From a virus (taxonomy: Duplodnaviria; Caudoviricetes): a stretch of DNA of 64,000 bases. Positions within the stretch are counted from its first letter, which is position 1; each line of letters starts with the position of its first letter. The stretch lies in IMG/VR virus record IMGVR_UViG_3300027917_000018, positions 64,001 through 128,000 of that record; one strand, 5' to 3'. Below the pieces are notes generated by a model that had not been told where the DNA came from, made no database searches, and worked only from the letters and a program-made list of their open reading frames with translations. Shown here in pieces: positions 3,103 through 63,491 of the stretch. The position numbers were made by a program, and so were the translations under genes.

Positions 3103-3474
3103 ATGAATCTGAAGCAGCTGGCTCAGCTGTTGATTGAGGGACCGAATGCTGCCGAGCAGGCTCCTGAAATCGACAAGAAGATCGCGGTTTTCCTCAACCG
3201 CGTGCTGCTGCGGCATTGGAATACGCCCAGTTTCCTCTCCTTCCTCAAAGACGTGGCGATGTTCCCGAAGGACGATGAAAGCGGCCAAGTCGTAATCCAA
3301 TTCGTTTACAATCGCCTGCCCGAGGAAGCGATCCCTTCCCTGGCCCGTTTGCTGGCTTCGCCTTCGGACCCCAAGTACTCGCGGTTTGTCGACAACGGCC
3401 AAGCCTATACCGGCGTTGAGCTGTGCGTTAAGCCGGATGACTTCGGCGGCGAGGAATACGACTACGCTTACTGA
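3103..3474 (+). CDS. Hypothetical protein with N-terminal LAQLLIEG peptide
   Basis: 123-aa ORF; GTAGTTA at 3092-3098. Confidence 0.7.
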   Translation: MNLKQLAQLLIEGPNAAEQAPEIDKKIAVFLNRVLLRHWNTPSFLSFLKDVAMFPKDDESGQVVIQFVYNRLPEEAIPSLARLLASPSDPKYSRFVDNGQAYTGVELCVKPDDFGGEEYDYAY

Positions 3475-4079: not shown

Positions 4080-5999
4080 ATGGCACAGACCATCGGAACC
4101 AATCTTCTGCGCTACTTGGGCATGGTCGGCTCGACTGGCGTAAACACGGGGCGGCTTGTACCTCCTGCGGCCAGCGCCATCGCCAATCAGTTCCTTTTCA
4201 GGGAATTCGAGGAATCGGGCGCGGTGGCCGACCCCGACATCTGGACCAAGTACAACAGCGTCATGAAGCGTCCGACGACCTTCGACGCGATGCTCCAGCT
4301 GTGGGAAGAAATGGCCGATTGGGACCTGATGCACGCCGCTTTGGTCGAGGTCGTGGATGAGGCGACCGCCGTGGATATTACCAGCCCAGGCGCGATTTGG
4401 TACCAGTGCAACGACAAGGCTTTTGAGGACGAGCTGAACAGCCTGCTGGTCAAGGTGGATGCGGAGACCATCATTCGCAGCCAGGTCTGGCACGTTGCCG
4501 CCGTCGGAAACCACTTTGAGAAGATCGAGTACGCCCCGGTGGAGGGCGTGTTGGGGCTGTCCTTCGTTCATCCGATGGACATGCGGCGGTATTGGCTGGA
4601 GCGGAACCGGAAGTGCATCGGCTTTAAGTGGGCTGGGCACCGCCCGGACAAGGAGCCGGTGTTTGTTGGGCCGGACAACCAGACGCCGGTTGAGCGCGTC
4701 GCGCTTTCCACAGGCCAAAACGTTGAGGAATTGTGGTATCCGTGGGATTTCCTGCACATGCGCCGGATGTACCGGCTGCGCATTTCCGAACACGGCGAGC
4801 CCCTCTTCGCCGAGGCCGAGGGCATCTACAAGAAGCTACGGATCGCCATTGACCAGATGGTGGTTCACCGTGCCCAGGTTCAGCCCGACCGCTACGCCAT
4901 CAACATCGACGTTCAGGAGCAGCCTCCGGCAGAGCAGATGCGCACGGTCCAGCGGTGGAAGCAGCAGCTTCGGGCGAAGCTGGCGTTCGGCCAAACTGGA
5001 AACGTAAACAGTTTGAACGCGCCCACGGACTTCAGCAGCTACTACAACGCCTGGGCGCTGGACACCATCCTCTACGTGGCCCAGCCCAAGGGCTTCAATC
5101 ACGTGGTCAACAAGCTTCAGGGCACGCAGCAAGTCCCTGACGTTTACGATATTGAGCTGCTCACCGACCTTTTCTACAGCATCATCGGCATGCCGCGTTC
5201 CTGGTTTGGCGGCCAAAAGGAGGGCCAGACTTCACCGTCGGGCAAGGCGCTCCTGGCCCAGGACATCCGGTTCCTGCGCAAGATCAAGTCCATTCGAGCG
5301 CCCATCATCCAGGCGTACGTGTGGCTGGCCTACTTCCACGCAGTCCTCAAGGGCAAGGACATCCGGGAGCTGGACATCAAGGTCCTCATGCCGCCCATCG
5401 GGAGCTTGGAGGACCAGATGAAGCTGGAGATGCTCAAGCTCCAAACTGAAGTCCTGTCCGAGCTGGCCGACGTGATGCAGAAGTACAACCTGCCGCAGGA
5501 AGCCTGGGTCGAGACGGTTTTCAAGCGCTACATGCACCTGCCGGATGAGGTCGTGAACATGTTCATCACGGCCATGCCGCTGCCGTCGGAATCCTCCGAT
5601 GTGACGGGCGGCCCGGCGGAAGGCCGCAAGCCCGCGCCCAGGGTTGGAAAGCTCATCCAGGAGGCTGAAGCCCTGGCGGACAAGAATCCCAGGCTGCGCC
5701 AACTGCTGGGTCAGATGCGCGAGGCGCAATGGGGTGTCAATGTCACGGATGTCAACCGGGCCGTGCTCCGCCGCTTCAAGACTCGCGACGATGTCGCCCT
5801 TGCGCCGCAGCTTAAGGAGAACGATCTGATCATCAGTTCCTTTGGCAAGCACCCGCTCGAACTCAAACGCGTAAACGGAAATGGTTCGAGCCAGGGGCGT
5901 ATGTCTTTGACCGAGCAGTTGCAGGAAGGCATCACCCAGGGCGAGCCGGTCGCCCAGCCTAATGGCGGTTGGCGGCAATTCTATCCTGAGAAGTTCTGA
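4080..5999 (+). CDS. Portal protein (T4 gp20-like) with C-terminal extension
   Basis: YKKLRIAIDQMVVHRAQVQPDRYAINIDV and LLAQDIRFLRKI resemble gp20 conserved blocks; context next to gp25-like gene; GTAGTTA at 4067-4073. Confidence 0.85.
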   Translation: MAQTIGTNLLRYLGMVGSTGVNTGRLVPPAASAIANQFLFREFEESGAVADPDIWTKYNSVMKRPTTFDAMLQLWEEMADWDLMHAALVEVVDEATAVDITSPGAIWYQCNDKAFEDELNSLLVKVDAETIIRSQVWHVAAVGNHFEKIEYAPVEGVLGLSFVHPMDMRRYWLERNRKCIGFKWAGHRPDKEPVFVGPDNQTPVERVALSTGQNVEELWYPWDFLHMRRMYRLRISEHGEPLFAEAEGIYKKLRIAIDQMVVHRAQVQPDRYAINIDVQEQPPAEQMRTVQRWKQQLRAKLAFGQTGNVNSLNAPTDFSSYYNAWALDTILYVAQPKGFNHVVNKLQGTQQVPDVYDIELLTDLFYSIIGMPRSWFGGQKEGQTSPSGKALLAQDIRFLRKIKSIRAPIIQAYVWLAYFHAVLKGKDIRELDIKVLMPPIGSLEDQMKLEMLKLQTEVLSELADVMQKYNLPQEAWVETVFKRYMHLPDEVVNMFITAMPLPSESSDVTGGPAEGRKPAPRVGKLIQEAEALADKNPRLRQLLGQMREAQWGVNVTDVNRAVLRRFKTRDDVALAPQLKENDLIISSFGKHPLELKRVNGNGSSQGRMSLTEQLQEGITQGEPVAQPNGGWRQFYPEKF

Positions 6000-17177: not shown

Positions 17178-18070
17178 AGGTCTTCGCTCAGTTCATTCCA
17201 TTGTTCGGACACCGCCTGGAGCTTTTTACGGGCCGCCTCTTCGGCCTCGTCGCGCTCCGCCCAAAGGTCAGCGTCCCGTACAGAGAACACGGCGTCGCGG
17301 ATCAGGTCGGCAATAACTTGAGGTTCGAGTGCGTCCAGCTCCCAGCTGTCGTTGCCGAATTGGGCAATGTAGGCGGCGGCCCGTGAATCCGTGATCTTGG
17401 CCGGATTGGGCGGCGGCTGGAACTGGTCGATCTGGTCCATGTTGAGCGCCAGCCGCTTGATTTCGATGTCGCGGCCCGCAAACTCGGAGAGCCGGTCCAC
17501 GATGTCGCGGGTCATGTCCTTGCCGGAGGGGTCGTGGTCGCCCAAATGGAACACGAGCGGCGTCTGCCCCTGCCGGGCAAACTTGGCCAGGCGCTGCGCG
17601 GCGCTCCACATCTCCGATTGGCTGGTGTAGCCCCGGCAGGAGAAGTAGGGCACGTCGAGGTCGTTGCACACGCCCTCGATGACACCCACCAGCGCATCCT
17701 TCTCGATCCAGACCTCGACGTGGTAGGGCTGGTCATTCCATTTGTCGAAGCGGAACTGGTTCGCGCAGGCCCGAATGATGTCCGAGGGCGATTCCCAGTG
17801 GGCTAGGCTGCGCAAGTTCCGGGTCCGGTCGACGATGGCCTCCCAGTCAATCAGCCCCGCCAACCGGGCATCGCTGATGATGTCGCCGAGGTTCTTGTAG
17901 TCCTTCTGCGTATTGGGGATCAGGTCGCGGCTGACGAACTGGTAGTAGAGCTGGCGCAGTGTCAGGGTGAATCCCTGCTGCGCGTATTCCGCGATGATCT
18001 GGTTCGCGGTCTCGATCAGCGCCTGGCGGGCCGCGCTGAACCTCTTCTCTCGGTAGCAAATCTTTGGCAT
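17174..18070 (-). CDS. wHTH-Toprim protein (Topo VI-A/JetD-like fold)
   Basis: TLRQLYYQ wHTH; VWIEKDAL, SCRGYTS, HLGDHDPSG Toprim motifs. Confidence 0.8.
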   Translation of the reverse strand: MPKICYREKRFSAARQALIETANQIIAEYAQQGFTLTLRQLYYQFVSRDLIPNTQKDYKNLGDIISDARLAGLIDWEAIVDRTRNLRSLAHWESPSDIIRACANQFRFDKWNDQPYHVEVWIEKDALVGVIEGVCNDLDVPYFSCRGYTSQSEMWSAAQRLAKFARQGQTPLVFHLGDHDPSGKDMTRDIVDRLSEFAGRDIEIKRLALNMDQIDQFQPPPNPAKITDSRAAAYIAQFGNDSWELDALEPQVIADLIRDAVFSVRDADLWAERDEAEEAARKKLQAVSEQWNELSEDL

Positions 18071-25073: not shown

Positions 25074-27103
25074 TGAAGAAGGTTACGGAAGCGGACGGCG
25101 GAGCTGAGCGCGCCCGGCGCGACTTCAAAGCCATGATTCAGGCCCAGCGCGACGCTGAGGCCGCCAAGGCGCGTGCCCGCGAGGCGGAACGGGCCACGGC
25201 CCGCCACCAAAAGGTCTTGGATAACGGGCCGCCGCTGCGGGACGGCGAGGAGGATAACCCGAAGATGATGTGGTTTCGGGAGAACCTGGAATGGGAGCCG
25301 CACCCGGAACTGTGGTGCCCGCCGAGTACTGGCTACAGCGACGGCAGCGGCAGCTTCGTCGAGCGCTCCAACGCCAAGTGGTTCACCGAAAACATGGGTG
25401 AAATCTTCAGCCAGGTCGGCGGCGGCTACGGCACGGTATGGACCGGCATTACCGATGAGGACCGGTGGGTCATCACCGACGAGCAGTTTGAGCAGCTCAA
25501 GGATGTGGTCGAGGGCCTGGAGGGCTACCCCATCATCGACGAGCAGCTCTACAGCGAAATGGAGTACGACGCCTACAACGAGTACTACCAGGGCGAAGGG
25601 CGCAAGGACCTGCGCCAGGCGCTCCTGCAAAGGTTCTCCGGCGACCCCGAGGCGCAGATGGCCGTGCGCTTCAGCTCGGTCGACGCGTTCGACCACCTGG
25701 CCTGGAATAGCGACATCAGCCAGGCTTTTGAGACAGAAACGGGCGGCGGCGTTTACTTTCGGGCCAACGCGGCTGCCGAAGGCTTCAACCGGGACGAGGT
25801 CGTGGACCTGGTCAGCGAGGAGGAGGCCCGCACGGCAATGGCCAGCGCGTGGGCCGAGCGTATTCAGCCTGGGTGGATCGACACGCTGGCTGAGGTTCGA
25901 CGCGACGATGAACGGCTGGTCAACACGGTCGCGGAGCTGGAGCCCTCGTCAGGCTTCAATTTGTTTACGAAATTGATGGTTAAGGTTGGAGCCGACTGGG
26001 AATGGGATCAGCGGGAGGATGAGGCCAGGGACGCGTTCGACATCGATAGTGATTCTATGAAGGAAATGGCGCAGGCACTGGAGCCGGGCATGCTGAGCGG
26101 TCTTCGCCCCGAGGACCCGCGCCAGCTGCGCTTGGCCATCGAGCAGATTCTCAATGGCGAGCCGACCTTCACGCTCTTCGAGGGGTTTAAGGAGAAGAAG
26201 CAGCTTTTCGTCAGCCAAGGCGCGAGCCCCGAGGAAGTCGACGCACTCCTTACCCAGTTCAAGCGCCTGAAGCAACGCGGCCTGCTCCAGGGTGAGGAGG
26301 CCGACATCGACCGGTACACTGACTTGGATTCGCTGCGGCAGGCGGTCGAAGCCGCGTCGCAGAAACAGAGCAAAACGGGGCGCAAGCGGGAGGTTCGGCA
26401 CAAAGAGGCTATCGTGCTCCGGGATGACGAGGAGATGCAGATTGTCGTTCCGAAAACCTGGGCCGCCGCGAAAGCCTACGGCAAGGGGACCAAGTGGTGC
26501 ATCAGCATGAAGGAGTACCCGAGCCACTGGACCGAGTACCACAAGAAGCTCGCCAAGCATTACATGATCTGGAACAAGCGGCTGCCCGCGCCCACGATGG
26601 GCACCCACGGCGAGCCGATCGGCGGCAGCCCGCTCTACAAGATTGCCGTTACGATTTACCCGGACGGCCATTCATCGATCTACAATGCGCAGGACCAGGC
26701 CATCACCGAGCAGGACCTGAAACGAGCCACCGGTTTCAGCCTTTCGGATTTCAAGTCTTGGGAGGAGCACGAGCTTGCGGGCCGCGACCTGTTCCGCCTG
26801 ATGGGCGCGAAGAACGTGCCGTTCCGCGAGCGTGTGGAGCGGATCGGGGCCGAGGGCTGGGCCGAGATGGGCAAGAATGTGGCCATGCGCGAACTGTGGT
26901 CCAGTGACCAGGCCGAGGACCTGAAGGGCAAAAGCAAAGAGGAGGTCGACGCGGCCTGGGACGAGTTCTGGCAGAAGGCCCGGCAGGAGCTGCTGGACTA
27001 CCCGGACGACGAGGACTACGAAAAGAGCCTGAAGTTCTACGTCGAGTCGCTGCGGCTGCCGCCCGGCAAACAGCTGGCACTGCTGGAGGACGCCGATGAA
27101 TAG
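25067..27103 (+). CDS. Multi-domain protein (YPIIDE domain plus GTKWC-motif domain)
   Basis: LEGYPIIDEQLYSEME; IVVPKTWAAAKAYGKGTKWCISM; linkers with LFE/LLE. Confidence 0.7.
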   Translation: MLMKKVTEADGGAERARRDFKAMIQAQRDAEAAKARAREAERATARHQKVLDNGPPLRDGEEDNPKMMWFRENLEWEPHPELWCPPSTGYSDGSGSFVERSNAKWFTENMGEIFSQVGGGYGTVWTGITDEDRWVITDEQFEQLKDVVEGLEGYPIIDEQLYSEMEYDAYNEYYQGEGRKDLRQALLQRFSGDPEAQMAVRFSSVDAFDHLAWNSDISQAFETETGGGVYFRANAAAEGFNRDEVVDLVSEEEARTAMASAWAERIQPGWIDTLAEVRRDDERLVNTVAELEPSSGFNLFTKLMVKVGADWEWDQREDEARDAFDIDSDSMKEMAQALEPGMLSGLRPEDPRQLRLAIEQILNGEPTFTLFEGFKEKKQLFVSQGASPEEVDALLTQFKRLKQRGLLQGEEADIDRYTDLDSLRQAVEAASQKQSKTGRKREVRHKEAIVLRDDEEMQIVVPKTWAAAKAYGKGTKWCISMKEYPSHWTEYHKKLAKHYMIWNKRLPAPTMGTHGEPIGGSPLYKIAVTIYPDGHSSIYNAQDQAITEQDLKRATGFSLSDFKSWEEHELAGRDLFRLMGAKNVPFRERVERIGAEGWAEMGKNVAMRELWSSDQAEDLKGKSKEEVDAAWDEFWQKARQELLDYPDDEDYEKSLKFYVESLRLPPGKQLALLEDADE

Positions 27104-27803
27104 CCAGGCCCTCCGTCTCGCCCGATGCCTGCTGGAGCAGAAGTTCAGCTACAGCACAACGCAGATCAATCTGCCGTCGCCGCTCGACGATTTCGTCGTG
27201 AAGTGGGGCCGGATGCACGTGCAGGACCAGGACCTCTACTACTTTGACGATGGCGGCGGTGGCCGTGAAACCGAACCTCATATCACGGTGCTTTACGGGC
27301 TGCTGGAACCCGAGCCCAGCGATGCGCTCCGGCAAATCGTCCGCCGGACTTCGCCCTTCTGGATTCGGTTGGGGCCGACGAGCCTCTTCGAGAACGAGGA
27401 CTTTGACGTGCTCAAGTTTTCCGTGGTGAGCCCCGACTTGGAGGCGCTCAGCGGTGCGATCCGCCAGGCGTGCCCAAACGAGAACAAGTACCCGAAGTAC
27501 ATCCCGCACGCCACAATAGCCTACGTGAAAAAGGGCCGCGCCAAGCACTTGAACGGGCTGTACCCGTTCGAGGGTTATCCGCCCGTTCCCAGCGAGTTCG
27601 AGGCTAACACGTTGATTTTCAGCGCTGCCGGGGATGACGACGACCCGAAGCGCCGAACAGTGAGGCTTCCATTCAACCGGACGAGGAACGAAAGTCTCAA
27701 TCAGGACAGCCCATTCCAGGGTTTATGGTTCCCGGCAGACGCGTCCGAGCTGGCCAGCAAGATTCTCGGACTCAAGAAACAAGACCCAAAGCAGGTTGTT
27801 TAG
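27096..27803 (+). CDS. 2H phosphoesterase (T4 gp57B/Acb1-like)
   Basis: Two H-x-T motifs: EPHITVLYG and PHATIAYVKKG. Confidence 0.85.
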   Translation: MNSQALRLARCLLEQKFSYSTTQINLPSPLDDFVVKWGRMHVQDQDLYYFDDGGGGRETEPHITVLYGLLEPEPSDALRQIVRRTSPFWIRLGPTSLFENEDFDVLKFSVVSPDLEALSGAIRQACPNENKYPKYIPHATIAYVKKGRAKHLNGLYPFEGYPPVPSEFEANTLIFSAAGDDDDPKRRTVRLPFNRTRNESLNQDSPFQGLWFPADASELASKILGLKKQDPKQVV

Positions 27804-54753: not shown

Positions 54754-54902
54754 GCTGGCGAGACTGGCACTTGAGTACGCTCACTGCATTGCCCGCAAGA
54801 ACTACTGGGCGCAGCGGGCGGAAAACGTCGCCATCCGCAAGACGCTCCTGAGTAATCCCACGATGACCCTCCAGGAGCTTCGCCCGCGTAGTTAAAGGCA
54901 AG

Positions 54903-55934
54903 ATGCCAAAGTATGCAGTCGTGCCAAGCCACCTGATGGGCGGCCCGGAGAATCCCGGCATGCGCTGGGATGCCGCCTATTTGATGATCCTGGCCGACCT
55001 GCTCAATCCCCAGCTGTCGATCGAGGAGGCTACCGATCTTTTGGAGAAGCACCTGGAGGAGAAGAAAATCCGGGTAGGCGACCTGTGGCGGCTTTCCGGG
55101 ACCCCATCCGCCGTCAAGGAGCTGGGCAAGAAGTTTGGTCTCGAAGTTACGGATCGCGTTCGCCCGCGATTCACGGCGGTCTTCATGGAGCTGCTCCGGC
55201 GGCACAAGGACCGGCTCCGGCACCAGGCCAAGAGCATCGAGCAGCAACTGGACGACCTTGACCAGCGTTTCCAGGCTGAAGCCCTCGCCGCCAGCGTGCT
55301 CGAAGGCTACAGGGAGACGGATGATTACAGCGCCGAGTACGCCAAGTTCAACGATCTATCCAAATGGCCAATTTCTGCAAAAAGAGGCGCTTTCTTGGAC
55401 TATGGACTGGCCAAGGAATGGGCTCGGTATTTGGCAAACGGAACCTACACACTTGATTGGTGGGGCACGCGGCTGGAGGACATTCCTTGGGCTGCCGAAA
55501 GCATAGCCAGGTTTTTTGGGTCCAAATGGGAACGGAAAGAAGACAGGGAAGCCGTTCAAACTCTCAATAATGCAGCGGCTCAAGTCATTGACGTTGAGAC
55601 GATCCACGAGCCACTAGCGCTCCCGCCTCCGCGCACGACCGGCGAATCCTTGGCCGCCAGCGTGCTCGAAGGCGTCGTATTGGAGGGTGAGGGCATCGAG
55701 GCCCGCCTCAAGGCTGCCGCCAAGAAGATCAAGCATTCCGGGGATTACGGGATGCTTTACTACCATCCCGAGAAGCACGAGGTCCACTGGACGGCGGCGG
55801 ATTCGGACGGTGAGCCGGAGCACACGGGCGGCCCCGAAATCATCAAGCTGCTGAAGCTGGATGGCATCAAGCACGTCGAGGTCGGTGACGAGTGGTCCCC
55901 GGACGAGGACGAAGGCTGGAAACGCCTGATATGA
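54903..55934 (+). CDS. Three-module protein with repeated AASVLEG linkers
   Basis: GTAGTTA at 54888-54894; EALAASVLEG and ESLAASVLEG. Confidence 0.75.
   Translation: MPKYAVVPSHLMGGPENPGMRWDAAYLMILADLLNPQLSIEEATDLLEKHLEEKKIRVGDLWRLSGTPSAVKELGKKFGLEVTDRVRPRFTAVFMELLRRHKDRLRHQAKSIEQQLDDLDQRFQAEALAASVLEGYRETDDYSAEYAKFNDLSKWPISAKRGAFLDYGLAKEWARYLANGTYTLDWWGTRLEDIPWAAESIARFFGSKWERKEDREAVQTLNNAAAQVIDVETIHEPLALPPPRTTGESLAASVLEGVVLEGEGIEARLKAAAKKIKHSGDYGMLYYHPEKHEVHWTAADSDGEPEHTGGPEIIKLLKLDGIKHVEVGDEWSPDEDEGWKRLI
55287..55673 (+). repeat. Exact 21-bp direct repeat flanking a low-GC module
   Basis: GCCGCCAGCGTGCTCGAAGGC at 55287-55307 and 55653-55673. Confidence 0.95.
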
Positions 55935-57124
55935 CGCCCAATCAGCAAGATCGCGCTCTGAAGAATGCCAGCCGGTGGCTGCACAAGTACCGGCGGGCCG
56001 CCCGGCAGACCCTTGGCCCGGAGCGCGCCAAGTATCAGCAAGCCGCCCGGAATTATCGTGGATGGATTTCAACGCTGCGCCGGGACATTGCGAACCGGCC
56101 CACAGAAGAAGGAATTGAGATGAGCAAACTGCACGAAGCTTACGGCTGGGTGGTCAGCTATGACGCCCCAGGTGGCACGAAATGGTACTGGGGCCAGAAA
56201 GGCTGGGTTCAGGACCGGCATCAGGCCAAAGCCTCGATGAAGAAGGCCGATATGATCAGCCTGGCGCAAAGCTTGGTGCGCAACGCCCCGGCCTTGCAGG
56301 ACCGCATCGGCGTTCAGGTGAACGCACCGAAGTTGGAGGGCATTCCTGCAAACACGGGCGAAGATGAAGGGTTCCGTCGGATGAAGCGCCTGGCCGCCAG
56401 ACCGGACAGCGAGCTTGGACCAAGCGCACGCCGCGCCAAAGCGCGGTTCCTGGCGAACAACAAGAAGGCCGATGCCATGTTCAAATGGGCTAAGGGCGTC
56501 AAGGAGGACGTGCCTTTTGCCCAGCCTGCCGGTGGGCCGGACGACCCGTGGCGGCAAAGCATAGTGAAGGTGCCTTACGACCAGTTCGATTTCAGCGGCA
56601 AGCGCGGCAAAGAAGACGTGGAGGACGAGGACGACGAGGAAAAAGAGACCGAGAAGCCCAAGGCCAAAAGCCGTTTTGACCTCAAGTTCGATGAGTCCGA
56701 GACGCTCGCCTCCAGGGTCCTGGAGACTGGCGAACGCAGCAAGCGCGACATCTACAATGAGCTGGAGCGCTTGTGGGCGGAGCGCGACGAGATGCAGCGG
56801 CTCCAGCGGTTCATGGCCAAGTGGGCGCTCATCAAGGACGAGCTGGGCATCAGCGACGCGGACATCCAGGCCCTGGACATCGAAACCAAGGGCGACGGCA
56901 GCAAATGGGCGGTGGGCATCTACCTCAAGGAGCCGCGCTATGACCTGAAGATGCAGCGGGCCGACGCCCGCCGTAAACGTTTGGATCGTGAGTGGGCCGA
57001 GAAGAATCCTCATTTGCACCGCAGTCAGAAGCCGTCGTGGTCGCCGGGTCACCGGCATTCCAGCTCCAGCTACATCGCTTTGGAGCAGCCGCTTTATCTG
57101 CCCAAAGCCTACTTCAAGAAATGA
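55931..57124 (+). CDS. Multi-module hypothetical protein
   Basis: ATG 55931; linkers LHE, KLEG, ETLASRVLETG. Confidence 0.7.
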   Translation: MTPNQQDRALKNASRWLHKYRRAARQTLGPERAKYQQAARNYRGWISTLRRDIANRPTEEGIEMSKLHEAYGWVVSYDAPGGTKWYWGQKGWVQDRHQAKASMKKADMISLAQSLVRNAPALQDRIGVQVNAPKLEGIPANTGEDEGFRRMKRLAARPDSELGPSARRAKARFLANNKKADAMFKWAKGVKEDVPFAQPAGGPDDPWRQSIVKVPYDQFDFSGKRGKEDVEDEDDEEKETEKPKAKSRFDLKFDESETLASRVLETGERSKRDIYNELERLWAERDEMQRLQRFMAKWALIKDELGISDADIQALDIETKGDGSKWAVGIYLKEPRYDLKMQRADARRKRLDREWAEKNPHLHRSQKPSWSPGHRHSSSSYIALEQPLYLPKAYFKK

Positions 57125-59262
57125 AGGTTGCCGGGCACGAGGTTGAGACCGTCACCCATCCGCATCACGGCGGCTGGATGGCGATAGCCTACCTCGAAGG
57201 CGGCAAGCAAGTGGCCGGAGCGCCGTGCGACACCAAAGAGCTGGCCGAGAAAGACCTTCACGACAAGCTCTACGACATGCTGCGGCCCAAGTTCGATCCG
57301 AAGAAAACCTACGAGCAATCCGAGGAATACCAGCAGCGCGTGATTGCGAGAGCAGAAACGTTTACGCCTTTCAAGCGAGCGATGTGGGACCTCGATGTGG
57401 CACTGACTGACCGCGCCTTCGAGGCCGCCAGCCAGTACCACCACTACCCGGATACGCCGGATAAGTGGTTTGCCCAGGGCGGCGAATGGTACCTGAGCGA
57501 TGGAGGTTACAGCCGCGTCGTTTACAGCGAGGAGACCGGGAGGCTGTTCCTGACCAGCAACAGCCGCGACCAGGTCAAGGCGCGGTGGGACGAGGCGCTG
57601 CCCCAGCGGGCCAAGGCCGAGGCCATCATTAACGACTACATGCGCCAGGAGCTGGGCGAGGCCAAGACCAAGTTTGCCGCCGTGGTGCTGCTGAAGGACA
57701 AGGACGACCCCAAGGCTCTGATCATCAAGCGGGATGACGAGCCCGAGGCGGGCAAGTGGGCCTGTCCTGGTGGCCACTGCGATCCGGGCGAGGACGACGA
57801 GGCGGCAGCCCACCGGGAGCTGAAGGAGGAGACGCGCTTGTCCGCCGAGAGCCTGGTTCCGCTGGGCAAGACCGCCGATGGCACGGCCATGTTCTGCGGC
57901 TGGGCCAAGACCGAGGACGCCAAAGGCACAGCCACCGACGACGCCGAGGGCCTCAAGTGGGTCTCGGTCGACAACCTGCCGGAGCTGGCATTTGGCAACG
58001 AAAAGCATATCCGCCAGGCCGTTCGCAAGCTCAAGGCCAAGGAGGAGGCACTCCAGCTCGCCCGCGAGGTTCTTAATGAGGTCACGCCTCGGGAGCTTTT
58101 AAGTCGGCACCCCGGAGAGGCAGAGCCGTACGTTTTCTTTCAGCCGTCGGGCATAGAATCGTTCAAGCTACCCCTCCAAAAAGTGGCTTCGACTTACGGT
58201 TGGGATTACACACAGGCTGAGCTTAGCCAGGAACAGCTAAACTGGCTCGACCTCCACGGTGAGTCTGTTTTTATAGCCTTGAACGACTACGGAGCAATCA
58301 ATAGCGACATTCTGGACGCAAACGACGAAACTGCGGGTACTTTCAGCGTCGTTGGTAACCTCGATAGCGCTACAGAAGTCAACAGTCTCGAACGTCTCAC
58401 GCCGCCGTGGCGCACGGAAGGCAAGATCGGCAGTCCGCGCCAGAACCGTTGGAACCCGATGGGGCTTCACCGCAATCACCGGGGCCAGCTCGTGGACAAG
58501 TACGGGCGCGTCATGGACGTGGACTGGGATGAGTTTGAGCGCAAGCGCCTGAAGCCCGGCGAGGAATTGAAGAGCCCGAAGGTGCTCAATCCGCTTCACC
58601 AGGCGGCCAAGGCCACCGGCCAGGTCGAGGCGCGGGAGCCAGAAAAACCGGGAAAGCCGATCAGTCCCCGCGAGCTGCTCAGGAAGTACCCGCGTGAACA
58701 GCCCTATCTGCTCAAGGGCGAGATTGAAGACACCCAGCGCCTGGTCAAGGTCCTGGACCGGTTCGACAACGAGGAGCACATCTACGATGACGGCTACGGG
58801 CCGCTGTGGGTCATGCGGGAAAGCCTGGGCATCACCGGCATTGCCCGAGCCCGTTCGTGGGAGGATGCCTATAGCATCGCCGAGGACGAGTTCTTCCATG
58901 AGGCGGATGAAACGGTCGAAGAGCTTCAGAAGGAGTACGGCTTTCGGCGCGAGCACGTCAAGATCGTGCGCGATCCGAAAACCGGCGAGGAGCGAGATGT
59001 TCAGCAGGGCGACTATCCGTTTGCGGAAACCGGCGTCGAGTTCGTGCGTTGGGAGACTAGGGAAACCCCTGACCCGGACGGCTGGATTGACAACGAGCTG
59101 TTCCAGGAGGCGTACGGCTTCAGGCCAAACGGCCCCAATGCCCGCGACACGCACCAGCACGGTATTTACCAAAAGGACCTCAACGGCGAGGTCTTGGACG
59201 AGCTGACGCCAGCCCTGGCCGAAGAGCTTCAGTTGAGAATCTACGTGGAGGACGAAGAATGA
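57121..59262 (+). CDS. Multi-module protein containing a Nudix hydrolase domain
   Basis: PGGHCDPGEDDEAAAHRELKEETRL Nudix box; linkers LAREVLNEVTPRELL and ISPRELL. Confidence 0.8.
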   Translation: MKVAGHEVETVTHPHHGGWMAIAYLEGGKQVAGAPCDTKELAEKDLHDKLYDMLRPKFDPKKTYEQSEEYQQRVIARAETFTPFKRAMWDLDVALTDRAFEAASQYHHYPDTPDKWFAQGGEWYLSDGGYSRVVYSEETGRLFLTSNSRDQVKARWDEALPQRAKAEAIINDYMRQELGEAKTKFAAVVLLKDKDDPKALIIKRDDEPEAGKWACPGGHCDPGEDDEAAAHRELKEETRLSAESLVPLGKTADGTAMFCGWAKTEDAKGTATDDAEGLKWVSVDNLPELAFGNEKHIRQAVRKLKAKEEALQLAREVLNEVTPRELLSRHPGEAEPYVFFQPSGIESFKLPLQKVASTYGWDYTQAELSQEQLNWLDLHGESVFIALNDYGAINSDILDANDETAGTFSVVGNLDSATEVNSLERLTPPWRTEGKIGSPRQNRWNPMGLHRNHRGQLVDKYGRVMDVDWDEFERKRLKPGEELKSPKVLNPLHQAAKATGQVEAREPEKPGKPISPRELLRKYPREQPYLLKGEIEDTQRLVKVLDRFDNEEHIYDDGYGPLWVMRESLGITGIARARSWEDAYSIAEDEFFHEADETVEELQKEYGFRREHVKIVRDPKTGEERDVQQGDYPFAETGVEFVRWETRETPDPDGWIDNELFQEAYGFRPNGPNARDTHQHGIYQKDLNGEVLDELTPALAEELQLRIYVEDEE

Positions 59263-59705
59263 GCGACGTTGTCAGGCGCATGTTAGGTGAGAGCGTGTGG
59301 GACCCGCCCAAGGGCATGGTTCAGTGTCCGGCTTGCGAGGCAATGGGCTACGTCGATGAGGAAGGCAATCCCCACGGTCCCGACACGCCCGGCGCGGAGC
59401 CTTGCTACTTGTGCCACGGCAAGCGCTTTGTGAAACCCGAGGTTGCCAAGGACCATGAGGGCAGGACCAAGGCCAAGATGCGGGAGTACGGCATGGAGTC
59501 TCGGGATGAAGTGCGAGCCGTTATCGAGGACACGCGGCCCGTGAAGTTTTACCGGTGCCCGCACTGCAACGAGGAGATTTTCGAGAAGCACGACTACGTT
59601 GACGAGTCCGGCGTGACCCGCCACCGGGGCTGTGGCGGAGCGTTTAAGTGGCCACCGCCGAGCCCGGAACAAAAGGCGTGGCTGGACAAACTACTGAGCA
59701 GGTAA
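59259..59705 (+). CDS. Protein with two Zn-finger modules
   Basis: CPACEAMG...CYLCHG and CPHC...HRGCG. Confidence 0.65.
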   Translation: MSDVVRRMLGESVWDPPKGMVQCPACEAMGYVDEEGNPHGPDTPGAEPCYLCHGKRFVKPEVAKDHEGRTKAKMREYGMESRDEVRAVIEDTRPVKFYRCPHCNEEIFEKHDYVDESGVTRHRGCGGAFKWPPPSPEQKAWLDKLLSR

Positions 59706-59708
59706 GCT

Positions 59709-60278
59709 ATGCCAATTGTCAAAAACTTCACCCGGCAGGCCAGCAGTGCTGGCGGCGACCTCGTGCCCGTGCTCAAGAGCCTGGGCGGCGACCAGTTTGA
59801 TGAGCGCACGATGGAGCTGCGCAATTTCTTTGGCATCAAACTGACGACCACGGACGTTAATCGCAGCGGCGCGTCTACTCCGGTGGACGACCAGTTCACG
59901 GTGGCGCTCACGCAAGGTGTTCAGGTCATGCTGGAATATCGAATTGCCTGGACGCTTCCGGCGTCTCCGACTGCTACAGGCATTGAGTTTGGCTGGAATT
60001 TTCCGCTCTCTCCAGCCTTCACGGACGGCTACCAAATCAACTGGTATGAGTCGATCGCCGCAGGTGCCAGCACTATTGTAGGTCTTGTTTCCAATGGCGA
60101 GGGAGCGCCTGTGCCCATCTTTGCCAACACCACTGCCATTCGGAACAACGGCAGGTGGCACGTCGAGGGCTTCTTTGTTGTGACACCCACGTCGAGCGGC
60201 AACGCCGAATTCTTTTGGGGCAATTGCACGGATGTTACCCGCAGCGCGGGCAGCCACGTGCGCGTCACACCTGTATGA
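59709..60278 (+). CDS. Beta-rich putative virion protein
   Basis: T/G/V-rich beta-sandwich-like composition. Confidence 0.6.
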   Translation: MPIVKNFTRQASSAGGDLVPVLKSLGGDQFDERTMELRNFFGIKLTTTDVNRSGASTPVDDQFTVALTQGVQVMLEYRIAWTLPASPTATGIEFGWNFPLSPAFTDGYQINWYESIAAGASTIVGLVSNGEGAPVPIFANTTAIRNNGRWHVEGFFVVTPTSSGNAEFFWGNCTDVTRSAGSHVRVTPV

Positions 60279-60610
60279 GTCGAGCCCGCGCCATCTTGGA
60301 AGCGGAGACGCCCAAGAGCGTTATGGCGGAGCTGCCATCGGATGAAATTGAAATCCGTTGTCACCTTCAGGACAATCGGCTTCACAGCGGGCGGGAGGTT
60401 TCCGATCCTGGCAGTCACTTTGACCGCGTGGTTGTTTCGGGCCGCGATTGGCCAAAGGTCGAGCAGCTTGGGCTTTGGCTGGAGCCCGACCCGGACGAGC
60501 GTGGCGTTTACTGGTGCGGCGACCTTTACGTCACCGAGCTGCAAGGTGCGCTTGACGATGCCGGGATCAAGCATGACTGGTGGGAAAGCGATCCCCTGGA
60601 GGACGAATGA
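60275..60610 (+). CDS. Small acidic protein with MSRARAILEAE leader (copy 1)
   Basis: ATG 60275 overlapping upstream stop. Confidence 0.65.
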   Translation: MSRARAILEAETPKSVMAELPSDEIEIRCHLQDNRLHSGREVSDPGSHFDRVVVSGRDWPKVEQLGLWLEPDPDERGVYWCGDLYVTELQGALDDAGIKHDWWESDPLEDE

Positions 60611-60945
60611 GCCGCGCCCGAGCCATCCTGGAGGCTGAGCCTCGCGACCTGATGCGCCGCGCCGCCCAGCGTGAGAAGGCCGAGGCAGGCAAGTGGCCGG
60701 TTCAACCCGGCGACAAGGGCTTCCTTTTCATTCTCGGCGAGAATCCGAACCTTTCTTTGAACGTCTACGCGCCGACCACCGCCCTGGCCGTCGAACGCTG
60801 CAATCAGGTTCTTAAGGAGCTGTTCCCCGACGGCTTGATGCACCGGAATGACCGCTGGGACACGACCTTTCATTTTGATTGGACGAAATTGGAGGCCAGG
60901 GACTCGGACATCTACGATGAGTGGGCGCTGGATGCTGAGCGGTGA
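60607..60945 (+). CDS. Small protein with MSRARAILEAE leader (copy 2)
   Basis: ATG 60607 overlapping upstream stop. Confidence 0.65.
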   Translation: MSRARAILEAEPRDLMRRAAQREKAEAGKWPVQPGDKGFLFILGENPNLSLNVYAPTTALAVERCNQVLKELFPDGLMHRNDRWDTTFHFDWTKLEARDSDIYDEWALDAER

Positions 60946-60981: not shown

Positions 60982-61143
60982 ATGGTTAGTATCAAACAGC
61001 GCGCCCTGGTGGCGTTGGTGCTGTTCGCCCGCCGCGAGAAGGCGCGGGCGCTTCGGGCCAAACATGCTTTGGCTCAGCAGGTAACGCGTGCATACGCCAG
61101 AAAAAAGATCAGGAAGTCATGGTACGTCCGTATCCGTGTTTGA
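60982..61143 (+). CDS. Small basic protein (53 aa), not in ORF track
   Basis: MVSIKQRALVALVLFARREK...; fills gap between coupled genes. Confidence 0.4.
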   Translation: MVSIKQRALVALVLFARREKARALRAKHALAQQVTRAYARKKIRKSWYVRIRV

Positions 61144-61151
61144 GAAAGCGG

Positions 61152-61307
61152 ATGAAGCTGCGGCAGCTTGCCATTCTGCGTCAGCAGCGGGCGGAGACGG
61201 CTATCCTCGAAAATCTTCCCAACTTCACCCGTGAAGAGATTGAAAGCCTGCGCGGTTTCTGTGTCCCTGTGGAAAAGCTGCGCAAGCTGTTGCTGGAGCA
61301 TTCTTGA
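61152..61307 (+). CDS. Small helical protein
   Basis: MKLRQLAIL...AETAILENL. Confidence 0.45.
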   Translation: MKLRQLAILRQQRAETAILENLPNFTREEIESLRGFCVPVEKLRKLLLEHS

Positions 61308-62109: not shown

Positions 62110-62376
62110 ATGACAGGTCATCTTGATGAACGGTGTTTTCGGTGTCACCAGCCTTTGTCCTTTGAGTCCACGGGTGCGGGCTGGACGGTTTTCTGCGGCT
62201 ACGGCCCCTGCAAGCTGGTTCCAGCCAATACAGGCGCTACGGGCCGGACCCAGGAGGAGGCCCTTGCCGCATACAAGGCGCTGGAGGACCAGCTGTGCCC
62301 GGATTGCGACGGCAACGGGGTGGACGAGGACGAGAACTGCTGCCCAGCCTGCAAAGGCTCCGGCCTGGAGGTATGA
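62110..62376 (+). CDS. Zn-finger protein
   Basis: CFRC, CGYGPC, CPDCDGNG...CPACKGSG. Confidence 0.7.
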   Translation: MTGHLDERCFRCHQPLSFESTGAGWTVFCGYGPCKLVPANTGATGRTQEEALAAYKALEDQLCPDCDGNGVDEDENCCPACKGSGLEV

Positions 62377-63491
62377 ACTACGACGACTACAACCGCATGT
62401 GCGAGAACATCGCGCCCGAGGCCGCCAAGGTTTGGTGCTCGATCGTCGACTTCATGAAGCAGGTCAGCGAGCACCATTCAAAGGACGTGGTTTGGAATCT
62501 GGTCGAGCCTCGGCGCACGGTCGCCCCGAACGGCTATCACCCGCATAAGATCGTGGCCTCGATGCTCTACACGACGCTGGTGGAGGCGCACGACAAGGCT
62601 GCTCACCAAATCGATCCAGTCGGCATGGAGATTACGGCCACGGCCATTGCCTACCAGGTCGTGCGCCACGAGGTCCCGGTCTATTACGTGAAGGAGGAAT
62701 TTGCCCGCGCCGTGGCCGCAACCGATTTGCCCGACGACTTCTTTTTGGCTGACCTACATTGGCCGCGCCCCGCGATGGTGATTGGCTGGCCGGTGGCGTT
62801 CATGAAGGAGATGGTCGGGGCCGATGTCTCCTACGTCTTTGCCGCGAGCTTCCAAAAGAATGTCGACTACAAGCCGCCCTTTCCGCTCCAGGGCAAGGTC
62901 ATCTTCATGCCCGACGACAAGGTTGCCTGGCATCACGTGTTGTGGGAGCAGGGCAACGTCGGCAGCTACCTCTCAGCCTACTGGACGAGGGATCGCGTGG
63001 CGGACACGGTGACCAAGTACACCTACACCGATTTTACCGGCAGGCACGACGAAGCTAGGATTATGGTCGACGAGGAGCGCAGCAACAAGATCAGCGGCCT
63101 CATGCTCAAGCTGCTCCTGGTGCTCAACATGATGCCCCACCTGATCGAGACCGGCACGATTCAGCGCAAGGAGAAGGTCAAGAAGGGCATTGTGCGCCAG
63201 GCGCTCTGGAATCCGAACATCATCGGCGGCAAGTACCGCGTCAGCACATCGGGCCAGGGCGATGGCACCCACGCCAGCCCCAGGATGCACTGGCGGCGCG
63301 GACATGTCGCCTTCGTGGCCCGACGGAAAAAAGGAGCAGACTTTCTGTCGGTCGGCGTCATGCCGCGCCGAACAGATGGTAACATCGATTGGGACAGAGT
63401 CACGCCTGAGCAGCGGGAACTTTTCTGGTCCTGCCATGAGCGCAAATGGCTGGAGCCGGTCCTGGTCATGGCCCCGGAGGATGTGGAATGA
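62373..63491 (+). CDS. Hypothetical phage protein with HASPRMHWRRGH motif
   Basis: ATG 62373; H-x-R-R-G-H C-terminal motif seen in many phage hypotheticals. Confidence 0.7.
   Translation: MNYDDYNRMCENIAPEAAKVWCSIVDFMKQVSEHHSKDVVWNLVEPRRTVAPNGYHPHKIVASMLYTTLVEAHDKAAHQIDPVGMEITATAIAYQVVRHEVPVYYVKEEFARAVAATDLPDDFFLADLHWPRPAMVIGWPVAFMKEMVGADVSYVFAASFQKNVDYKPPFPLQGKVIFMPDDKVAWHHVLWEQGNVGSYLSAYWTRDRVADTVTKYTYTDFTGRHDEARIMVDEERSNKISGLMLKLLLVLNMMPHLIETGTIQRKEKVKKGIVRQALWNPNIIGGKYRVSTSGQGDGTHASPRMHWRRGHVAFVARRKKGADFLSVGVMPRRTDGNIDWDRVTPEQRELFWSCHERKWLEPVLVMAPEDVE

Follow-up and report, generated by a model that had tools for sequence, protein, structure and literature searches.

Two adjacent genes of an uncultured T4-like jumbo phage begin with the same 11-residue peptide, MSRARAILEAE, and this peptide is the start of a tag of about 20 residues that is carried by about 20 otherwise unrelated proteins of the same genome (consensus MSRARAILEAE-(S/T)PRxFLKK). 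The two genes, here called ORF A and ORF B (ORF, open reading frame), lie in a stretch of 64,000 nucleotides, the window, that comprises bases 64001-128000 of the IMG/VR virus record IMGVR_UViG_3300027917_000018, a single contig of 202,975 bp (~203 kb) with 59.8% GC. Positions are those of the window unless given as genome positions. Judged from sequence comparison, and with moderate confidence, the tag may be an address-and-cut label like the capsid-targeting sequence (CTS) of phage T4, placed on hypervariable cargo proteins and extended to the junctions of polyproteins.

The shared leader of ORFs A and B

ORF A (60275-60610, plus strand, 111 residues) consists of a leader (residues 1-20), a compact alpha/beta cargo domain (residues 21-105) and an acidic tail, DWWESDPLEDE. 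ORF B (60607-60945, plus strand, 112 residues) has a leader as in A, followed by an unrelated ORFan cargo. The stop codon of ORF A and the start codon of ORF B share a 4-nt overlap, ATGA, and GGAGG is found 6-10 nt 5' of the ORF B start. As the preliminary description of this DNA had it, MSRARAILEAE stands at the start of both proteins, followed by TPKSVM in A and by PRDLM in B. Within the leader of A (60275-60334, plus strand; MSRARAILEAE-TPKSVMAEL) two parts can be distinguished: element 1, a helix ending in I-L-E with Ala next, and element 2, T-P-K-x-V-M. The leader of B (60607-60663, plus strand; MSRARAILEAE-PRDLMRRA) has one residue fewer before the Pro and, with a one-residue gap allowed, the likeness between the two leaders reaches residue 17, with 13 of 17 residues identical. 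Both ORFs display coding-type codon usage in the annotated frame only. Independent gene calling placed both starts at the same positions in four assemblies obtained from other samples; these are 99.9-100% identical across the A/B stretch and too close for estimating the ratio of non-synonymous to synonymous substitution rates (dN/dS). Marine-sediment samples containing the phage include JGI 3300028815 and ENA ERZ27279932.

The peptide is encoded differently in the two genes, 6 of the 11 codons differing and all of the differences being synonymous. Among the 10 non-Met codons four agree; independent draws using this genome's codon usage would give 4.1, with four as the likeliest count. None of the ~22 non-synonymous sites is changed between the leaders, whereas synonymous sites are saturated. 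The same codon pattern is evident in other exact or near-exact copies of the tag, at genome positions 138707 (plus strand) and 133933 (minus strand). The probability of a 10-residue match arising by chance at two adjacent starts is negligible. Synonymous saturation without any amino acid change indicates constraint on the peptide and not recent copying; the earlier claim of selection on the peptide itself is thus borne out, and the A/B pair serves as the clearest internal control for a tag selected as a peptide.

A genome-wide family of two-part tags

The A/B pair is not unique. Using an iterated hidden Markov model (HMM) on the six-frame translation of the genome, 19 tag sites were found at an independent E-value (i-E) <0.01. 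About 17 tag copies stand at the beginning of a gene and form clusters at genome 124.3, 130.5-139.0, 149.3-151.3, 175.0-177.7 and 182.5 kb, and the tagged genes are mostly joined by ATGA or GTGA overlaps. The remaining copies are within longer ORFs, at the junctions of multi-module proteins.

Across the family, element 1 is a short helix ending in [IVL]-[ILV]-[E/D], usually with Ala next, and is separated by a spacer of 1-5 residues from element 2, [STN]-P-[RK]-x-[FLVI]-[LIM]-[KR]-[KR]. Hydrophobic-x-Glu/Asp is present no more than 8 residues upstream of element 2 in 21 of 25 copies (with Ala next in 13 of the 21), and this pairing occurs both at N-termini and at internal junctions. MSRARA is found only at true N-termini, while internal copies retain the ..VVE-A.. 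part and element 2. Two internal junction copies are carried by a 713-residue multi-module NUDIX protein (57121-59262, plus strand), which starts MKVAGHEV without an N-terminal leader: AREVLNEVTPRELL at 58060-58101 (plus strand) and QVEA...KPISPRELLRKYP (QVEA..SPRELLRKYP) at 58621-58692 (plus strand). An example of a junction peptide of the family is DVVEAETPREFLKK.

A Sec or Tat signal peptide was considered and rejected, as MSRARAILEAETPKSVMAEL is amphipathic and charged, with neither a hydrophobic core nor RR. Just past ORF B, a 62-residue ORF (61119-61307) contains a tag-like stretch in mid-protein, ..RAETAILENLPNFTREE.. (residues 24-40), and may be the remnant of a tagged gene, or a tagged gene with a misassigned start.

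Cargo proteins beyond the tag

With the tag removed, 0 of 153 protein pairs of the tag family are related at E<1e-3. The tagged cargo proteins range from 53 to 703 residues and include NUDIX-linked, DUF6166 and phosphoribosyltransferase-like modules, and other tagged modules match different stand-alone PHROG families of unknown function. For A and B, no BLASTP match was found past the leader, and comparison of an A-family profile with B by hhalign gave a probability of 0.6%, i.e. no match, in agreement with the earlier statement that the downstream domains have no evident similarity.

In an AlphaFold2 single-sequence model of A, with a predicted local distance difference test score (pLDDT) of 78.7, domain residues 21-105 score 83-93. 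Residues 1-20, the tag, are disordered in this model (pLDDT <50) and outside the confident domain. The model of B is weak (pLDDT 46) and unusable for fold comparison; the predicted order of secondary-structure elements differs between A and B, subject to the same weakness of the B model. Of the comparison of mature domains that had been proposed, the sequence and profile part finds the two unrelated and the fold part is limited by the B model. Full-length paralogy, the outcome named beforehand as contradicting a portable signal, was looked for and not found, with the fold of B poorly modelled.

An exhaustive HMMER search yielded four genuine homologues of the A domain, P0003-P0006; matches P0007-P0009 were discarded as low-complexity repeat proteins. 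In the alignment of P0003-P0006, homology to A begins at about residue 25 (EIRC.LQDNR..SG.E ... DLF.TEL). P0006 (77 residues) begins at the domain itself, without the tag, and P0004 has a short N-terminus unlike the tag of A. In P0003 the A-type domain comes second, after another module and a tag-like linker (..AVVQHLLRQEGRASEVIKKIG..). The occurrence of the A-type domain without the leader or behind an internal linker argues that the tag is portable. Together with the unrelated remainders of A and B, the position of the tag outside the A domain and the lack of related pairs in the family, this upholds the view of the leader as a portable signal.

No close relatives of A or B were found in viral contigs, and a word search of 5.8 billion proteins returned self clusters only; by these searches both are ORFans apart from the remote matches. 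The A model had no significant Foldseek match in PDB or BFVD. For A and B the ESM Atlas gave no feature matches, and structural neighbours only at a template modelling score (TM) <0.55. Pfam and PHROGs gave nothing credible for either protein, A having one sub-threshold BRK match.

The prohead protease and its likely substrates

The genome encodes a protease of the Peptidase_S77 (T4 gp21) family (PF03420, 73.8 bits), as well as T4-type head and tail genes for a portal (PF07230, Portal_T4), a gp23-like capsid protein (Gp23, 94 bits) and a gp25-like baseplate protein. The protease is a 554-residue fusion with a scaffold-like coiled-coil tail and is located directly upstream of the capsid gene (genome 17334-18998, with the protease domain at 17334-17980). 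The tail is a Glu/Lys-rich coiled coil of 340 residues, and an open frame of 539-612 residues is present in all relatives checked.

T4 gp21 cleaves after L/I-X-E, as first seen at a Glu-Ala bond (PMC9026906). The leaders of A and B, with I-L-E at residues 7-9 and then Ala, match this rule in sequence. Known or likely substrates of the protease in the clade share the hydrophobic-x-Glu signature. The protease N-terminus itself reads MQQLLEG in the source genome and RQYLIEG or ILLED in relatives, and the capsid propeptide region is conserved clade-wide as ..AIMLE-N.. and ..RLDE-VTRT... Two conserved head-module proteins have N-terminal helices ending in LIE or LGE in each lineage that has them. 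A conserved 123-residue head-module gene (3103-3474, plus strand), ~0.6 kb upstream of the portal gene (4080-5999), starts MNLKQLAQLLIEG, with an N-terminal helix ending in L-I-E; its orthologue in a related phage (G002, below) starts MTDKELAQVLIEE. A complex prediction from the protease-domain alignment and the leader alignment scored 0.02, below the mark, and counts neither way.

Comparison with known tag systems

In T4 the CTS is carried by the internal proteins (IPs) IPI, IPII and IPIII and by Alt, and is removed by gp21 (Mullaney & Black 1996, reviewed in PMC9026906, PMC3012670). T-even internal proteins are diverse, with only the CTS in common (PMC3012670). The 10-residue CTS of IPIII is identical in IPII; targeting depends on its residues 4 and 7 and processing on residues 8 and 10, and with Asp at position 10 the protein is still targeted but no longer processed (PMC9026906). 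The T4 IPs are basic proteins, the lysines of which contact DNA (PMC9026906, PMC3012670). The tag described here is like the T4 CTS in being a short N-terminal peptide, identical or nearly so on unrelated proteins, that ends in hydrophobic-x-Glu and has an N-terminal part separable from the cut-site part. The genome is also like that of T4 in its gp21-family protease, its gp20/gp23-type head and its hypervariable cargo genes, in which only the tag is kept. It is unlike T4 in the number of copies (~19-25 here, four proteins in T4), in having element 2, (S/T)-P-R-x-F-L-K-K, downstream of the presumed cut and, compared with T4 cargo as described in the cited sources, in that cut site and element 2 also join modules in a polyprotein-like manner.

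Head or ejection proteins of giant phages are processed by gp21-like proteases, phiKZ gp175 and SPN3US gp245, and the SPN3US proteins gp53 and gp54, which are paralogues with 34% identity, have identical 15-residue N-termini with AXE/SXE cut motifs (PMC5694885). Like phiKZ and SPN3US, the source virus is a jumbo phage, and in those phages many head-internal propeptides are cut after Glu and identical N-termini are found on diverged proteins. Unlike the SPN3US pair, A and B are not recognisable paralogues, and the propeptides of those giant phages are often >100 residues, with the motif A/S/G-x-E. Unlike phiKZ-like phages, this phage belongs to a T4-like lineage. T4 already illustrates the principle, as do phiKZ and SPN3US in part (PMC5694885), and a literature search returned the T4 and SPN3US papers only (PMC9026906, PMC3012670, PMC5694885). 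Four features look like a new form of it: the large number of copies, the division of the tag into two parts, its service as a joint in polyproteins and its lineage-specific versions on orthologous cargo.

Cargo-loading peptides of encapsulins are short and portable and address unrelated cargo inside an HK97-fold shell, but are usually C-terminal and uncleaved. Their role is possibly like that of element 2, which stays on every module; the sequences differ.

Tags in related phages

Sixty viral contigs carry a capsid protein 64-82% identical to that of the source genome (G000), and four large relatives were examined whole (G001, G002, G004 and G005). A quick genome search of five relatives with the G000 leader HMM gave no match, because relatives carry different tag sequences. 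MSRARAILEAE is absent from the whole genome of G001 (199 kb, 53% GC), in which de-novo clustering of peptides near gene starts, checked on G000 as positive control, finds a tag of its own, M.AKQLVNRLLEVGPDEVDPKDYLKK, in 26 copies, with at least 8 internal short forms such as ..EALDPDEVDPKDY... The tags of G002 (238 kb) are M.AKEIIQHLLEDDDESWKDL and MKRINEILRALLESDDDDFDLKDL, with the internal form ..LENLDDDVSVKDL... The search for the leader in other phages that had been proposed thus failed for the exact leader, the back-translated pattern of which had no other match in IMG/VR, and succeeded for lineage-specific versions in G001 and G002.

Orthologous cargo carries the local tag: MSRARQIIEAAETPRSVI of G000 is the counterpart of MTARVVVDTLLETGPDEFNPRTVA of G001, and a module behind an internal tag copy in G000 is in G001 a stand-alone gene with the full tag. 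The modules of the 713-residue NUDIX protein are separate genes or parts of other fusions in G001 and G002, the NUDIX domain of G002 being within a 1545-residue multi-module ORF. Element 2 is the part best kept across lineages, as P-[RK]-x-[FY]-L-[KR]-[KR] in G000 and G001. The P0004 contig, part of a metagenome-assembled genome (MAG), has a neighbouring gene that carries ..ATSLLDEGESPKEFFKRL.., and this G000-type tag beside P0004 indicates that such tags exist outside this record.

Additional observations can be garnered from the same genomes. The longest of the polyprotein-like cargo ORFs encountered is the 1545-residue frame of G002 (G002:72128-76762), in which acidic ..DDD..KDL.. linkers connect many modules, NUDIX among them at about residue 1034. 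A second N-terminus of G001, MIPE.G[ST]..EFK[RH].VL, is found on at least 25 small genes, mostly in one tandem array and mostly at 192-198 kb on the minus strand; 3 of 300 pairs of these genes are related beyond the shared N-terminus, which opens with I-x-E and has an E-F-K-R motif resembling element 2. On the 44.7-kb contig JARYGD010000103.1 of the MAG GCA_029980445.1, a tag-less A-type gene adjoins a 290-residue gene with a G000-type tag. This contig is probably a related phage or prophage, and it could hint at the host.

The operon and its start-proximal box

ORFs A and B are the last two genes of a seven-gene translationally coupled operon (54903-60945, plus strand), comprised of 54903-55934, 55931-57124, 57121-59262, 59259-59705, 59709-60278, A and B, with 4-nt overlaps or a 3-nt gap at the junctions. 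A TAGTTA box (GTAGTTAA with flanks; 54889-54895, plus strand) lies 8 nt 5' of the operon's first start codon (54903). The box, typically GTAGTTA[AG]G, has 37 copies in the genome, of which 30 are 0-15 nt, mostly 4-8 nt, 5' of an ORF start. It heads the genes for the portal, the tail sheath (PF17482), the baseplate hub (PF04717) and a 1762-residue baseplate protein, and it is also in front of the 123-residue head-module gene; positions include 54889, 4068, 27823, 3093, 7071, 23759, 49557 and 61868. Two other tagged genes, g130517 and g182454, are preceded by the box as well. From its placement, the box looks like a structural-gene promoter or a leaderless-mRNA signal, and its presence before both the A/B operon and structural genes may hint at co-expression of the two.

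A proposed capsid-targeting and cleavage tag

The tag family, which is portable and selected as a peptide, together with the protease gene, the match to its cleavage rule and the common box, leads us to infer targeting, cutting, packaging and ejection of the tagged proteins. A and B would belong to about 20 rapidly evolving cargo proteins, each with a two-part N-terminal tag. The N-terminal part of element 1 (MSRARA) would address the protein to the prohead core, the gp21-type (Peptidase S77) prohead protease would cut at the hydrophobic-x-Glu end of element 1, and element 2 would stay on the mature N-terminus. As element 2 recurs with the cut site at every junction, it would either be part of what the protease recognises or a signal for the retention or ejection of each module. 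Synthesis of the cargo would take place late, alongside that of the head proteins; the cargo would then enter the head, be released by cleavage and probably accompany the DNA on delivery. By analogy, the division of labour between an N-terminal-only MSRARA and a cut site with element 2 that is also internal would match that within the CTS of T4 IPIII.

Several points weigh against this reading. Packaging and cutting are deduced from sequence, hydrophobic-x-Glu is a short motif that amphipathic helices often contain, the tag does not resemble the T4 CTS in sequence, and nothing in T4 corresponds to element 2. Unlike the T4 IPs, many of the cargo proteins are acidic, several of them strongly so (A has 26 D+E and 11 K+R). 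The would-be P1 residue is Asp or Asn in some copies, and Asp blocks processing in T4 (PMC9026906). The 713-residue NUDIX protein encoded by the A/B operon carries the tag at junctions and lacks an N-terminal address. In G004 and G005 (capsid 68-73% identical), no tag family was found by strict clustering or HMMs, the top G004 clusters being collagen-like repeat artefacts, and the protease is present. On the contig of P0003, related starts (MGRARDIIMG.., MSGLARDQIMR..) are without the acidic residue.

A wider claim can be put forward more tentatively, namely that the clade runs a general cargo-loading system, in which a lineage-specific, fast-evolving two-part peptide can be grafted onto any small protein, in single genes or at polyprotein joints. 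On this view the head would take up dozens of unrelated effectors, A and B included; the head protease would separate them, and they would be injected along with the DNA. Element 2, which remains on each module, would be a new kind of signal for its retention or ejection.

Alternative explanations

Portability and peptide-level selection suit any trans-acting reader equally well, and the tag could be a portable docking or recognition peptide for a partner outside the prohead, such as a chaperone, a modifying enzyme, a degradation or regulatory factor or a non-capsid assembly. In that case chance would account for the agreement with the protease rule, and the junction copies would be flexible linkers bringing each module to one partner. 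The acidic cargo, unlike the T4 IPs, and the fact that the part best kept between lineages is element 2, which T4 lacks, are in line with this. However, no candidate partner was found, and a docking peptide leaves unexplained both the similar N-termini of the head-module proteins and the protease and the structural-gene box of the operon; this explanation is regarded as rather unlikely. A radical-SAM/SPASM maturase, of the kind that reads leaders of ribosomally synthesised and post-translationally modified peptides (RiPP-like), was rejected as the reader: PF04055 has no match in G002, although the tag family is present there, and the single 248-residue radical-SAM gene of G000 is 10-60 kb from the tag clusters.

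It is improbable that the tagged genes are ancient full-length paralogues, the bodies of which have diverged while the N-terminus was kept by a common fold or oligomer interface. Tandem, translationally coupled arrays are the usual product of duplication, A and B are of similar length and both small alpha/beta proteins, and the B model is too poor for a fold comparison. Against these stand the lack of any likeness past the tag by BLASTP or profile, a tag that is disordered and outside the A domain, and a family of A-type domains that exists without it. The range of cargo lengths and modules (NUDIX-linked, DUF6166, phosphoribosyltransferase-like and different PHROG families) and the use of the tag as an internal joint between unrelated modules also count against paralogy.

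Least probable is a common start kept as a DNA-level feature, either a cassette-shuffling recombination linker or a context for initiating or coupling translation (the ATGA overlap arises from ATGAGC): most tagged genes do start ATGAGC or GTGA.., overlapping the upstream stop, and modules are shuffled between fused and separate forms in relatives, but the saturated synonymous sites leave no conserved DNA to recombine on and no RNA-level constraint past codons 1-2, the motif also occurs within ORFs far from any start, and the exact back-translated pattern is nowhere else in IMG/VR.

Implications

If the capsid-targeting and cleavage reading is true, ~20 added residues turn any small protein into an injected effector, and the scale, tens of modules including polyproteins, is far past the four proteins of T4. 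The tagged genes would then be a large and fast-changing set of candidate host-takeover or anti-defence proteins, mostly of unknown fold, and phage engineering would gain a natural packaging tag tuned to each lineage. In genome annotation, the tag could serve as a cheap flag for probable virion cargo in uncultured T4-like phages.

Neighbouring genes

Two genes 5' of A, a 148-residue gene (59259-59705) starts MSDVVRRMLGESVWDPPKG and also has CxxC pairs; its M-L-G-E start resembles the LGE-type N-termini of a 140-residue head-module protein. A 372-residue gene (62373-63491) has homologues in G001 and G002; the precomputed PF26125 AcrVA2-like label that it bears in other assemblies was not reproduced, Pfam being empty even at E<=1. 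A 235-residue 2H-phosphoesterase is encoded at 27096-27803 (2_5_RNA_ligase2, 49.6 bits), with a weak sub-threshold match to Acb1, an inhibitor of the cyclic oligonucleotide-based anti-phage signalling system (anti-CBASS).

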